Assembly: GCA_051942165.1 (NCBI GenBank)
Contig: JAVECS010000032.1
Span: 1 to 37,835 of the forward strand
Direction: 5' to 3'
From: Circinaria calcarea
Taxonomy: Eukaryota
Length of the DNA: 37,835 bases
Shown here: one piece after another, positions 2,740 through 35,456 of the stretch
Position numbering within the stretch: position 1 is the stretch's first letter
Layout of the letters: every line of letters begins with the position of its first letter
Notes under the pieces: generated by a model
The model's input: the letters and a program-made list of their open reading frames with translations, nothing else
What the model was told of the DNA's origin: nothing
Databases searched by the model: none
Program-made: the position numbers and the translations under genes

Positions 2740-4930
2740 TTTGCTTTGTAAACTATTGACAGGTCGAAGAGACAACGTGATTATTGCTGCGCTCGCCCAA
2801 AGGCACCGTGATGCCTGAAGGAGATGGAGAGTCGGCGGTCAACCGCCTGTAAGGGTGGGAAGGTCGGCAAGTTGCTTGCGAGCAGGCTACGACTGTCCGA
2901 ACGTGTCAAAGTAGGGAATGCTGGAAGGAGCCTCTCGATGTGCGTCCCCGGCGCGTATGTATGCGCAGGCAATGTGAGATCGTGGTTCGCCGGTCGGAGT
3001 TTTGGAAGCGAAAGCGTGTCGTGCGCAATAAGTGCGGATAGTCCAGTATGAATGCGGAGGTAGCCTCAGATGAGGCGTTAATGACAATGATGATGACGAT
3101 GACGGGCGCCGTGACCCCTCGGCAAGTCGTTTGGCCTCAGCTGAGAAGAGGGCAATTACTATAGGAAATGAGATTGTCTGGCGAGGTCGAGGGCGCAGGT
3201 GTAAAGAATGGTTACTCTGACGGGCGTAAAGTGAAGGTGGATACGAAGTACGGGGACTGGGAATTGGGATTGGAACTAGCCCACGTCCCAGTCTCGCCCA
3301 CAACACCGTAATTTGGGGGGACACGAGCTCTCTAAAAAAAAAAAAAAAAAGAGAAGGCTGGAGCACGGGCCTCCCTACCTCGTTCTAAAATACACCTAAG
3401 GCAGACGTGCCTTTACTGGCGCCCTCGGTCCGATACACGCTACTAGCACGGGGGGGAAATTCCCATCATGATCGAGATTCCCTACCTATTCCCTACCTAT
3501 TCCCTGCTCCGTTTCATTTGGCGGTTCCTGAGCTATCGTCCGACTTGCCGAGTCTCACGGACACAAAGCCGACAATGCTAAGGGAAAAGCCTTCGGCTCA
3601 AACCCGATCCAGTCTGTCATCTACATTCGATCTCATCATCTTCCTGTCGAATACGCAATGGAGATGAGGATCGCGGTACGGGGAGTAGTCTGACGGCTTT
3701 TCTGGGCAGATGAATATGCTTTCGGCCAAGATTTCACGGAAATCACGTTCACGTGACACATAGGGAAAACATTTGATTGCGTGTAAAATGAAATACGTTC
3801 CCAAGTGGTTAGAGTCGTTGCGGGATAAAGATGGTTGGATAAGAAGGGCTCCCCTACTCCTATAAAATGTACTCGAGGCCGTCTTGGACCGAATACCAAC
3901 GCTTGGGCAGTTGATCTTCTGATCTTTAACAACACATTGATTTTGCAGAAAAGATGCCCTGGGTCGGAGAACTTTCTTTCGCAGTCACTGCCAGTCATCT
4001 ACCTGCCACATGCGCGAAAGCCGACAGAGAGGCGTGTAGAACATATACGGAGCGTGACCCGAGTACCGCAGACACTTGGGGCCGTTTCGGTGATTCCTAC
4101 AAGGAGTTTGTTATGTACGGCAGGCTGGCATCGATACTCGAACCTTGATGTCGTAAAGTCTACGGTGGTCGCAGGCATAATAGCTGTTGGTGCGGTTTGG
4201 GACAAACCCTTGTATACTCGGCCGAAACAGCATAAAATCCGAGGAAAAAGGAGCTTTGATATTAAGGGTATCCTCCAGGGGCCCATTCCAATTTCCTGTC
4301 TAAAATTTGATATAAAGTATACATGTACAATGAAGCTATGTAAAGCTAGGCTGGGGTTCTTTCCGTGCACGTATGTATTGGCCGAGTCCAATTATTCCGC
4401 GCCTACATAATATCGTCTGATAATTGACAAAGTTCGCTAAATGCCCCAAATGTAGCTACATAAAATTAGATGGGGGGCTCCCTTCCACTCAGGATGTTTA
4501 CTGGCTGGTTATTCCCCTTTTAGCCCCAGCTGCAAAGTCCATTTTACTGGTTTTTGTGTCATTATTTGTAGTAGTAGCCTCCTAGGCCTCCCACATGCAA
4601 AGCTGAATGGCAGAGGCCGCTGCCGAAATAGCACCAAACCCTAGGATGATCCCCACCTACAAATCCCACACCTCTATGTACTATGAAGCCGCCAAGATGT
4701 AATCCAATGCCTAATCGGTACGGGGTCCAATCCCTCTGCCTGGTAATGAATCTTGCTCGCTAGCCCTGATGCTGCGGCCGCCGATAACGGAAGATTCACA
4801 GGAGCTGCGGTGTACTCGCCGCATAGTACTCAAACGATTGTGTTGACGAATTTTGTATTCACCGCCCCAGACCATGGTAAAAAGAGCGGGATATGAAACC
4901 TGGGAGAATGTCCTCTGCATATGCCAAGGG

Positions 4931-28975: not shown

Positions 28976-30332
28976 TCAGCCGACTTCATAATCCCGTTCG
29001 CCCTCTGCGTCCGCCTCTCCCTCGCCGCCATCATGTCTCTGGTAGTGGTGTGCTGTGTCCTGCGCCCCGGATGGATCTTGACTTCGTGGACCGACTTGAT
29101 ACATCTGTGGATGAGGTTAGCCTGCGATGCCACGCATGTAATGTTGGGCCCTTGGCCACTCTCAACCCCAGTTCCTAGGTCTAACTATAGAGCTGTTATG
29201 TGGAAGGAACGTGGTTTACCTACCTGTTGGGTGGGCATCTGAGGATACGCATACATCTCCCCGAACATTTGGCTCGGCGGCTGCCCATAGCTGCTCGTGT
29301 GATCCGGTTGTACCTGTGGTGCATACATGCTCGGCGGTGGTCGATAATCTTGTTCTGGTGGCATTGGATTATGTCCCAAGGACGAATAGTCAGGGGGCCC
29401 CATGGGGTGTTGCTGTGGCTGCGGTTGATGGCCAGAATGAGGCTGTTGAACGACGCTGCTATGCGTTGGAGGCAACTGACCACTCGAGGCGGATGACGAC
29501 TGGGCTGCAGCGGAAGAGCTACCACCCTGGCCTCCCGATCGTTTGGCATGGCTCGCGGCCTCTTCCCGAGGTACAATGTCGATGAGGAAATCGAACATGT
29601 CTGATTTAGCAAGTGCGGAAGCAATGTCAGAACGTTGGAGTGTGCGCCGCTTGTTTTCTTCAGCGTGGATCCATGCACGCATTGTCAGTTCCGTAATGAA
29701 AATATCGCAACCTTTGGCAAACAATATAGGTGCTTCAGCAGATATCATTTTGACTTCCGGGTCAGCCTTCATAACCTTTTTTATCCGTGCAAGAGGCAGC
29801 TGGTGAAGCTTGTAGTCATGCGTATCATTCTCGAGATGTGCAATTGTTTGCTGCCAGTATGTCATGAGTATGTCGCGATAGTTGCCGTGCAAGCCTTGGT
29901 TGACCTTCTCCAGTTCCGTCAGTCTCAAAGTCCAGCGGTATTCCATTGCAGTCCGATGCACCCACATTTGCCCACGTCCCTTGATACTGATCCGATCCAG
30001 GAGCGCCGCCTTGTGCCGCGAGCTGTTGTGACCATCAGTGATGCCATTGAGCCAGAGCAAGTCTATCGGGCTGTGTGGAAAACCATGGGTAACATACAGC
30101 AGCACTCGCGCCTGCATTCACCTTCCGAATTAGCCATGTTTCTCGGGTTCGGAAGGGTGACGTCGACAGTGGACGACTTCCTCCCGACTCACGCAGCAAA
30201 GCGGTTCCAGCGATTGCTGAGACATGAGTCGGAGAGAAGTGGGAACGTACCGTAGTGTCCACCATTAGCAGGGTCATACTTCGGCGCATGGGGTGGCTGC
30301 TGGTGTCCGGCCCCTGGCTGTTTATGTTCCAT
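28976..30332 (-). CDS. hapE: CCAAT-binding complex subunit HapE/Hap5 (NF-YC), 5 coding exons
   Basis: [34 protein letters not shown]; histone fold [57 protein letters not shown]; last exon ends [16 protein letters not shown] 28976-28978 (last exon less certain). Confidence 0.94.
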
Positions 30333-31793: not shown

Positions 31794-32788
31794 ATGGTGC
31801 AGCGTGCGGTTACGGCCCGAACTCGGGCACCGGTGCATGAGGTGTTGCAGGACTGTGATTTCACGGATGAGCAAATCAAGCAATTACTACGGAATGCAGA
31901 GACTCGTCTCAAAAGTTCGGAGGATTCGAAGACGGAGGTCATAGGTACTGCAAGCCCTAACTCTATCAATAGTCTTGTTGGGTACGCTGCGTCTTTAACG
32001 CCTTGACGCATCCATCCCTTACATTCTGATGTTCTCAGGTTTCCAAGACTCGATCCTGGGAAAATCACCAAACCCTATGTGGCTTCGCTCGGAGATATCG
32101 CCCGAGCAGATTCCGTTCGACTGCTGGATGAGCAAGCCCGGCAGCTATCGAACATGGCCCGCAGGGTAGAAGATCCCGTCCCTGTCAAGATCAAATTGGG
32201 CGAGGTAAGCCTTGCAATCTCATTCCCTTACCAAACCCATGAGGAAAACTTTCCAATCAACACTTGAAGCAGAACTATTCGGCCCCGTGTTGGGTGTCGC
32301 ACTGCAAGAATGAAAGTATCTAAACATAGTTACTCTGAGGCTAAAGATCATTACCCTATATCTGATTTACAATGCTCGTTTGGAATACTGGCTGATAGGA
32401 TTTAAAGTCAAAGAAGGCCACCGCAGGCGAGGACTGGTTTAATCTCCCACGAACAAATCTCACACCAGAGTTAAAAAGGGATTTTCAACTACTTAGAATG
32501 AGATCTGTATTAGACCCCAAGAGGCATTACAGGAAGGACAACGGGAAAGTGAAAGCCGCCGAGTTCTCGCACGTTGGCACGATTGTAGAAGGTCCCACCG
32601 AGTTTTATAGCTCCAGACTTCTGAAAAGAGATCGCAAAAGCACTTTTGTCGGCGAGATTCTCGCCAGAGAGGCGATGACCCGGCGTTTCGAAAGCAAGTA
32701 CCAGAACATACAAACCAAAAAGATCAGTGGTAAAAAGGCTTTCTACAAGGCGTTGAAAGAAAAGAGATCGAAGGGCATACACAAATGA
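31794..32788 (+). CDS. FCF2: rRNA-processing protein Fcf2, 3 exons
   Basis: TAGEDWFNLPRTNLTPELKRDFQLLRMRSVLDPKRHYRK..VGTIVEGPTEFYSSRLLKRDRK is the Fcf2 domain; ATG 31794. Confidence 0.92.
32236..32341 (+). ncRNA. snR63: Intronic box C/D snoRNA, snR63/U46(SNORD46)-like
   Basis: Inside the 203-nt FCF2 intron 2 (32205-32407): box C ATGAGGA 32239-32245, box D CTGA 32335-32338, preceded by CATAGTTACT complementary to LSU rRNA AGUAACUAUG. Confidence 0.85.
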
Positions 32789-32829: not shown

Positions 32830-34100
32830 CTATGAGCGTGTTAGGTCTAGGATAAAGCAACACACTAGTTCCTTCTATTCATCAGCATTATGACAACTGT
32901 AAGGATTGAATACGCTATCACCAACCTGCATGTCCTTGACTGCTTGTCGACTCGCCTCCAATACTTCTTCGTGATTTGCCTTCCCTTTCTCAAGCAATCC
33001 CACTAGGTCTTCACTGCTTGACTGCAGGAAACGGGCATCATCTCCTCTAGGCCCCGTCTCCAGGACTACATTATTGGTTACCAGGCTAAGGGCAAGAATA
33101 CGGATACCACTATGTCGAGCAACAATTATCTCCGGCACAGTAGACATCCCAACGAGATCGGCTCCGAGACTGCGCAGCATACGACATTCTGCCCTGGTCT
33201 CGTAACTACCTCATTAATACCTTCGGCATTTAACATGAGTAACTACTTACCTTGGACCGCCTACAAATGCATATACTCCCTCGTGGAGTTTTCGATTGCT
33301 AGGGCTAGTTTTCGAGGTCATCCATGCCCGATGCGCTCTCGTTCGTAAGTCAAGGTCGTACGCGTCAGACAGTGGAGGAAAGCGAAGACCAAAGTCCTCC
33401 AAATTTGGGCCGCGCAATGGATGCATACCTGCAAGACCGGCAAGATTTAGATGCTGGGCGAGATTGAGCATGACTGAGCCGCAAACCACCATAGTACTTA
33501 CATCGCTCAGCACCACGAGATCACCCACCGCATAATTGGGATTGAGTCCACCGGCCGCATTGGTCACTGTGCATGATCATCAGCAACAGCCAAATACAGC
33601 TATCTAAAGACAGTTGGGCCAGTACCGATCAATATTTCTATGCCAAGCAGTTTAAGAACACGAACGGGAAAAGTGATATCTCGCATTGAGTGGCCTTCAT
33701 AGAAACTGTGGTTACATGAGTTTTTCTTCCACTGTGGCTAGCATGAACGTCATACTGACTGTGCTCTGCCCACCATCAAAACAACCGAACACCTGTTCGG
33801 TCCAAGTAATCCGAAAAGGAGCTTTCCTGCATGGCCTTCAACTGCATGTTGCCAATCAGCCATATACCCTAATGGAACTTGACGGTCCAGATCAATACCG
33901 GTGCTCTTAGGGAAGAAGGGAATGTCTGAATACGGTACTTCCACACGGGGATCAGACACGGCACCGGCAAAACCACCTAGGCCAGATCCACAGATGACAC
34001 CCACTCGAGGTCGTTTGAGTGTATCAGGGATGCTATGTCGTAGAATTTGGACGGCTTCTTGCACTTGCGAAAATAACTGCGCGCCGTTCAGATCATTCAT
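32830..34100 (-). CDS. PNP1: Purine nucleoside phosphorylase, 7 exons
   Basis: [73 protein letters not shown] 32830-32832. Confidence 0.96.
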
Positions 34101-34463: not shown

Positions 34464-35456
34464 ATGGCTTTGCCTGTTCATATACGTTCGCCCTTTGGTG
34501 TTGCAAAGCTTCTCCAGATTGAGACGGCCAGGAACTCCCCACTGATTGTCCTTTCTCGGCTTCAGGCCAAGTCCAATTCTCAGATTGTCAGTAGAATCGA
34601 CTTCACTACATACTCGTACAATCGGCAAGCTGATCTGCGGCCTACACCGCTACTCCCGTCAGTCTAGCCACCGAAGAGCCGTGACAGTTGTCCATGGCTG
34701 CCCTCGCTGACGTTTTAACAGCCCCGATACCCGGGTGCAGGATCAAATCACCGTGTAGGGTTTCTCGGCCAAACAACTTATTTCGATATTCTGACGTGAC
34801 GATAGAAACCCCTCAAACACACAGTTCGTCTGTGAACCAACCCTACGGCTCCCACGCAGCGTTCAAGCTATTTACCTACGCCCGTTGAAACGACACGCGC
34901 AGTACGGTTTGCCAGCCTGCGATTTGCAGCTACGATCTTACAACGTACGAAATGTCGAATTCTTTGCGGATTTCGCGTTACGTGCCGCGTACTATCTGAA
35001 TCTGCCTGCTGCTGGCCCAATACCACTGCCTCGCATCATTGAGAGATGGACGGTACCGCGGAGTAATTTCGTCCACAAGAAGAGCCAGGAGAACTTTGAG
35101 AGAATCACCATCCGCAGGCTGATTCAAATACAAGACGGCCATCCAGAGACTGTTCAGATATGGCTAGCTTTCCTGAGGAAGCACGCTTATTACGGAGTTG
35201 GTATGAAGGCTAACGTATGGGAGCATGAGAAGCTGGGTTCGTTACCGTGCCTCATTCTCAAGGAGTTGATACTAAAAATCCATTAGGCGTCGGGAAAACA
35301 ATGGATGTAAGCCTGGAGAATTTAAAAAAGGTTTTGAAGCCGAAATGGGCGCATTTTGGGAGGAAGAAAAATATGGACACGTCGGAAAAAGCCATCGAAA
35401 TAATAAATAGCGACCAGTTCCGAAGCACTGCGGATGGCCCATTAAATAGTATATAG
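34464..35456 (+). CDS. RSM10: Mitochondrial small ribosomal subunit protein uS10m, 4 exons
   Basis: RLPRSVQAIYLRPLKR; CDLQLRSYNVRNVEFFADFALRAAYYL; ERWTVPRSNFVHKKSQENFERIT; basic presequence-like N-terminus from ATG 34464. Confidence 0.92.

Follow-up and report, generated by a model that had tools for sequence, protein, structure and literature searches.

Evidence for a conserved snR63/U46-type box C/D snoRNA in the second intron of the ribosome-biogenesis gene FCF2 of Circinaria calcarea

In S. cerevisiae the box C/D snoRNA snR63 is independently transcribed and has as its target Am2256 in helix 69 of the large-subunit (LSU) rRNA. It is absent from the intron-encoded yeast snoRNAs named in the consulted parts of PMC9351541. 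The vertebrate snoRNA SNORD46/U46 (RF00218) has the same target, there Am3739, and is intronic in the ribosome-related host RPS8; its consensus shows the same CCGUCUUGG loop, guide and box D as the locus described here, for which the host is FCF2. The relevant portions of published tables equate yeast Am2256 (snR63), human Am3739 (U46) and Dictyostelium Am2522. Am2256 is located in intersubunit bridge B2a, where according to the pertinent passages of PMC2794176 the loss of a single modification alters yeast translation accuracy. For N. crassa the corresponding sections of PMC2780460 describe Nc CD33 (EU780957), a cloned, intronic RNA of 102 nt, as a guide for 26S-Am2218 and list it as snR63/U46 homologue; term searches of this paper and its 7 supplements returned no name for the host gene. 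S. pombe snR63 (AJ617334) is also intronic in the account given by the consulted parts of PMC4138321, the searchable supplements of which name no host, and it is a double guide, 25S-Um930 (the 3' target of yeast snR40) being the site assigned to its D' guide (PMC4138321 Table S2). Given the intronic location in both N. crassa and S. pombe, it is budding yeast that represents the exception. The first-pass annotation of the present locus had contrasted an intronic snoRNA co-expressed with an rRNA-processing host with the independent yeast gene; the contrast marks budding yeast, not this fungus, as the outlier, and the co-expression would be of a general kind.

The window, i.e. the whole stretch of DNA analysed here, comprises positions 1–37,835 of contig JAVECS010000032.1 (37,835 nt) of Circinaria calcarea, a lichen-forming ascomycete. 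All coordinates refer to the + strand unless marked otherwise. FCF2 consists of three exons (31794..31981, 32039..32204 and 32408..32788) separated by intron 1 (31982..32038, 57 nt) and intron 2 (32205..32407, 203 nt, phase 0). This model yields a protein of 244 aa that is identical to database protein P0001, the source label of which is Circinaria calcarea. The Pfam Fcf2 domain was detected in P0001 with an E-value of 1.3e-36, and exon 3, containing the domain and the stop codon, matches PF08698 with an E-value of 1e-37. The snoRNA is located in intron 2, which is delimited by the gene model as well as by splicing of an orthologue. It starts with the donor GTAAGC at 32205, has a branch site GCTGAT at 32391..32396 (branch A at 32395), ends with an AAG acceptor at 32407, 12 nt past the branch A, and contains stops in all three frames. 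We rejected a TAG at 32398 as acceptor since only 3 nt separate it from the branch A, in comparison to 7–25 nt in orthologues, and P0001 uses 32407. The acceptors at 32413 and 32416 are candidate in-frame alternatives. Intron 2 had been described as about four times as long as a local norm of roughly 50 nt. With respect to intron 1 this is close (203/57 = 3.6), while for the window as a whole the motif survey was too noisy to establish a norm. The genes around FCF2 are ordinary: a CBF/NF-Y histone-fold factor gene (29185-30117, − strand), a phosphorylase-superfamily gene (32875-33210, − strand) converging on FCF2 at about 90 nt from its stop codon, and a ribosomal S10-family gene (34795-35286, + strand).

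From box C to box D the snoRNA comprises 100 nt (32239-32338). We compared it to its orthologues in an alignment of 41 sequences (A1), consisting of the window copy and 40 of the 49 distinct copies found in other FCF2 loci (see below); the truncated copies L002 and L033, the interrupted copy L062 and the near-duplicates L014, L027, L046, L053, L054 and L069 were omitted. Box C is present as the variant ATGAGGA (32239..32245). Its GA-G positions are invariant in 41/41, the fourth base being G in 23 and T in 18 of the sequences. The variant is also seen in N. crassa CD26, in contrast to the canonical UGAUGA of CD33. Box D (CTGA, 32335..32338) is invariant throughout and is directly preceded by the D guide CATAGTTACT (32325..32334). 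Within the guide the columns D+2 to D+10 are invariant in all 41 sequences, whereas D+1 (32334 in the window) is free (20 A, 17 T, 4 G), which is the signature expected of a methylation guide. At D+11 (32324) the window has an A in place of the pairing T found in 35/41 sequences. The same A occurs in L001, L003, L005, L012 and L049, making 6/41 copies with a guide that is one pair shorter; judging by the tree described below, these copies appear to belong to lichen-type lineages.

Between the two terminal boxes a box D' (TTGA, 32264..32267) takes a conserved place right before an internal stem formed by GCAG (32269..32272) and CTGC (32302..32305). All four pairs of this stem are formed in 41/41 sequences, including 5 double changes from G-C to A-U. 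The stem carries a hairpin-loop element with a CCGT core (32285..32293; YCGT in 40/41) and is followed by a degenerate box C' (ATGAAAG, 32310..32316), which we assigned by its position; the majority of sequences have TGA after the stem. Upstream of box D' lies a 5' element anchored to box C (32251..32256, consensus TCCCAA, CCA core in 37/41). The ends of the RNA are joined by a terminal stem (32234..32237 and 32339..32342), of which 3/4 pairs are formed in the window and the two arms of which covary over the 41 sequences. For this stem we counted 51 double-change cells compared to 20.1 +/- 4.6 after shuffling (0/500 shuffles as high), a count that kinship can inflate; the slid controls were clearly lower in paired cells as well as in covariation score (at most 0.22, compared to 0.61 for the stem and 0.23 for shuffles). 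The folding energy of the 100-nt RNA is no better than that of shuffled sequences (z 0.58), as is usual for C/D RNAs. When the window was compared to the other members of a 38-sequence intron alignment, identity amounted to 100% for guide and box D, 84% for box C and 77% for the loop, 51% for the region between C and D', and 29–30% for the spacers. Box C, box D, terminal stem, D'/C' and an rRNA-complementary guide, the features that define the box C/D class, are all found, the guide being at the low end of the usual range of about 10 nt or more. The distance from the end of box D to the branch A is 57 nt, in agreement with the roughly 55 nt noted at first between the guide with its CTGA and GCTGAT. 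In orthologue introns this distance is 48-62 nt in 41/45 rows; the remaining 4 rows have an absent, mis-picked or outlying branch, and the simple motif rule used also chose a wrong donor in several cases. By eye, the order of elements in CD33 is the same (box C, CCCA, D', GCAG stem, CCGU loop, guide, box D), and S. pombe snR63 shares the layout, the loop motif and the D guide, as far as its published description was consulted.

The first-pass annotation had proposed to inspect the introns of FCF2 orthologues. Of 87 FCF2 loci confirmed in metagenome contigs we examined the best 80. In 71 of these 80 the guide and box D, with one mismatch at most, precede the last exon by 64-91 nt. The 71 carriers collapse to 49 distinct copies. 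At L060 the contig starts at the exon and contains no upstream DNA. Five loci (L006, L024, L031, L035, L063) read through the junction in an open frame, as a spliced transcript would. L006 corresponds to L007 minus its 229-nt intron, with 1080/1080 identical bases downstream, which demonstrates for one relative that the orthologous intron is spliced out. For L024, L031, L035 and L063 we infer that they are transcripts as well. The remaining loci L076, L077 and L080 encode divergent intronless proteins outside the main clade and are probably derived from budding-yeast relatives. None of the nine loci lacking the motif gave a match to the covariance model described below. In a tree of the FCF2 C-terminal domain (126 columns, midpoint root, rough placement) carriers group with named proteins of Eurotiomycetes, Dothideomycetes, Leotiomycetes and lichens. 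The carriers L071, L073, L074, L075 and L078 form a long-branched clade outside the main group; the association of FCF2 and snoRNA therefore probably predates the filamentous ascomycetes. In L058 and L066 the sequence 5' of the host intron is by eye unlike the usual coding exon, and their exons may be arranged differently or an additional intron may be present upstream.

A covariance model was built from 30 orthologues, leaving out the window. It matched the window once, at the snoRNA, with 82.6 bits (E 6.8e-16) and recovered near-complete copies at 61-97 bits. The exact guide 14-mer occurs a single time in the window; copies with 2 mismatches at 3207 and 19431 are not matched by the covariance model and were discarded. 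The search against Rfam that had been suggested as a check gave a different outcome: no family reached its gathering score, neither in the whole window (0 matches) nor in 20 FCF2 loci. Below threshold the best score in the window was 17.5 bits for snoR442, and the same guide is found in each of the sub-threshold families snoR442, GlsR7, DdR4 and SNORD46. RF00218 matched L078 with 19.5 bits and L073 with 20.4 bits, compared to a gathering score of 40, and left the window unmatched; no family named snR63 was among the matches. Matches to SNORD93 (32338-32410, E 0.16) and STnc390 are sub-threshold, lie outside the conserved unit and were attributed to chance. These Rfam models leave the present fungal branch uncovered, and the window stayed below the gathering scores of RF00218 and related models. 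Homology outside of the guide is provided by the loop motif, which is common to the SNORD46 consensus, S. pombe snR63 and N. crassa CD33, in the latter two by eye.

In order to assess the target we used eukaryotic-type rRNA contained in many public prokaryote assemblies (at least 21 stretches, L081-L101) as proxies standing in for C. calcarea's own rRNA. All 7 stretches examined were classified as eukaryotic LSU by Rfam. L082, L095 and L096 look archaeal, and viral contigs gave no rRNA when scanned. The D guide forms 10 contiguous Watson-Crick pairs with the loop of helix 69, the partner proposed at the outset, and this is its best match in the complete proxy LSU; the guide of the window is short, with 9 bp plus D+1. 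The duplex is the same as the one published for the D guide of CD33 in the pertinent section of PMC2780460. At D+5, T32330 faces the final A of AGUAA, the position of N. crassa Am2218 and yeast Am2256, which is the D+5 assignment of the family. The original choice of the Am2256-equivalent therefore stands, with the correction that this nucleotide is not the second A of AGUAA but the last, i.e. the second of the AA pair. By analogy to these systems the snoRNA very probably guides methylation of the A2256-equivalent.

We considered two readings under which the window would not contain a working guide of its own. That the motifs arose by chance in a long intron would agree with the lack of an Rfam match at threshold, a reading already refuted by conservation and covariation and one to which we assign next to no probability. 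The window copy might also be decaying or inefficient in this lineage, with a working guide elsewhere in the genome, as could be suggested by its variant box C, by the AAG acceptor and by a guide that lacks one pair present in most orthologues. This is very unlikely: most sequences have the variant box C (23/41), the A at D+11 is common to five other loci, all invariant columns are intact in the window copy, and the 68-97 bits scored by full-length orthologues include its value. We are thus highly confident that intron 2 of FCF2 contains a genuine, conserved snR63/U46 box C/D snoRNA, and family, target, host gene and the places of the elements proposed for the intron 32205..32407 were all correct.

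The D' slot needs to be considered separately. Box D' near 32264 had been pointed out as possible, with a guide lacking an assigned target, and its position and conservation are borne out. A search for D'+5 targets of the 41 sequences in 14 proxy rRNA pieces detected no common site. If the RNA was still a double guide, its D' slot would direct a second methylation, either of Um898-type or at another site. S. pombe snR63, which has the same layout, has two listed targets (25S-Um930 and 25S-Am2343), and the CCCAA core is retained in the copies of filamentous fungi. Of the 37 sequences with the CCA core, 35 have it 7-9 nt downstream of box C, while its distance to D' varies between 5 and 14 nt, which breaks the D'+5 register. 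In addition, the site of the best in-register match changes from species to species, and these matches look no better than those of shuffled guides, a U898-type site in the D'+5 register, as in fission yeast, was not found in the proxy rRNAs, and the consulted part of the N. crassa paper gives only the D target (PMC2780460). In L078 the D' slot (479-497) is complementary to 18S helix 34 over 9 bp and resembles the Gm1271-type Rfam guides snoZ221_snoR21b and snoMe18S-Gm1358; the guide may have been switched in this early-branching lineage, which we mention as a lead only. Overall we judge a second methylation to be rather improbable. A 9-bp in-register complement near position 274 of a proxy LSU was observed for the D' slot of L071 (156-173), and changes of target have been described for fungal snoRNAs (PMC5824354, relevant passages).

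Alternatively, the 5' element and the loop could act as an rRNA-folding chaperone away from helix 69, methylation being only part of the job. Both the 5' region and the loop are conserved well above the spacers (51% and 77% vs 29–30%), and the Dictyostelium DdR4 consensus also has CCCAAA right after box C. In scans of five proxy rRNAs with the 5'-element profile the top-ranking site varied and no single site stood out; the U898-type site was fourth in one of them and outside the top five in two others containing the site. We consider this function unlikely. Most likely, we infer, the D' slot is a decayed Um898-type second guide that is kept for some pairing role: the 5' element is a probable relic of this guide, could pair with the snoRNA's own loop, and the slot has probably lost its methylation-guiding role in the filamentous fungi considered here.

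The conservation of the YCGT loop exceeds what the stem needs, and the CCGT motif recurs in the Rfam SNORD46 consensus and in fission-yeast snR63. The loop is complementary to rRNA ACGG four bases 5' of the guide duplex, and the eight-base context of this site is identical in 16/21 of the rRNA loci, themselves drawn from at least 21 stretches. In 12-nt windows the pairing energy of the site is within the top 0.1% (L094) and top 0.3% (L090) of rRNA. This test was run after a looser scan (24-nt windows, 11-column loop), in which helix 68-69 was outside the top six and the best site for L090 was elsewhere, in a lineage-specific stretch; the rank is therefore partly post hoc and suggestive only. 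In the window the loop pairing amounts to 4 contiguous pairs. Judged by these complementarities, the loop probably pairs with the rRNA just 5' of the target as extra base-pairing; its conservation could instead come from protein binding. In the main text of van Nues et al. (PMC3116282), as far as consulted, human U46 is listed among the snoRNAs with extra base-pairing and yeast snR63 is not.

Following the route published for orthologues, FCF2 pre-mRNA would be spliced and its last intron debranched and trimmed to an RNA of about 100 nt, the ends of which would be closed by the short terminal stem. Published orthologue work likewise suggests that it would bind Snu13, Nop58, Nop56 and fibrillarin, that its D guide would pair with the loop of LSU helix 69 in bridge B2a and that fibrillarin would 2'-O-methylate the A paired to D+5 (yeast A2256). 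The D'-C' hairpin would present the CCGU loop, probably pairing four bases 5' of the duplex and thereby aiding snoRNP loading, and the D' slot would probably no longer methylate in filamentous fungi.

Hosts connected to the ribosome are ordinary for such snoRNAs, with RPS8 for SNORD46 and NOG2 for snR191 as examples. Yeast NOG2 is a large-subunit factor. As described in the portions consulted, NOG2-snR191 is also a ribosome-biogenesis gene hosting a helix 69 guide, but snR191 is of the H/ACA class. Fcf2 is a small-subunit processome factor according to the literature consulted in part, and the guide acts on the large subunit; the link is thus one of general co-expression, as for NOG2-snR191. 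In full-text searches no paper contained both snR63 and fcf2. Papers combining Fcf2, snoRNA and intron were, by their listing and the passages retrieved, not about a link between FCF2 and a snoRNA, and the searched portions of papers including PMC8216456, PMC5033589, PMC10085805, PMC8817022, PMC5025248, PMC5934358 and PMC10068337 did not give FCF2 as host. The host assignment thus appears to be unreported in the papers searched; supplements on fungal snoRNAomes, Mitrovich et al. 2010 and genome browsers may record it. The snoRNA family itself is long known and the window copy is a new member of it; no new mechanism is revealed. The locus fills an annotation gap, the branch being missed by Rfam and recovered by the new covariance model. 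FCF2 is a host that is stable across many ascomycete classes and a marker for snoRNA-driven intron retention, and FCF2 of Aspergillus or Neurospora offers a simple test bed for extra base-pairing and second-guide loss.

A more far-reaching scenario is possible, though less likely than not. FCF2 would have hosted the U46/snR63 guide before the radiation of filamentous ascomycetes, and intron loss would go with relocation of the snoRNA in budding yeasts. The RNA would combine one constant job, serving helix 69 via guide and loop, with an exchangeable D' slot that is of Um898-type in fission yeast, 18S Gm1271-like in L078 and a detached, non-methylating pairing element in filamentous fungi, and in at least one lineage (L062) the guide would be split by a nested spliceosomal intron. 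If this is true, full-length guiding at helix 69 in that lineage would depend on a second, ordered and possibly regulated splicing step.

At L062 an intron-like insert of 59 nt (1854-1912) splits the D guide inside the FCF2 host intron (1720-1994). It has the donor GTAAGT, the branch site GCTAAT and the acceptor TAG. Its removal restores the guide and reduces the 275-nt host intron to 216 nt, a length similar to that of its orthologues; next to box D the guide comprises about 8 pairs unspliced and 10 spliced. From these signals we regard the insert, present in 1/49 distinct copies, as a putative nested spliceosomal intron. In the C-terminal-domain tree L062 is unresolved within the main clade and can be assigned to Ascomycota only. 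A similar case is snR51 of Euascomycete cluster III, for which the consulted part of PMC3596301 describes an intron B inserted at the guide/box D end of the intronic snoRNA. The snR51 host is non-coding and intron B lies between guide and box D, whereas in L062 the guide itself is split and the host is protein-coding.
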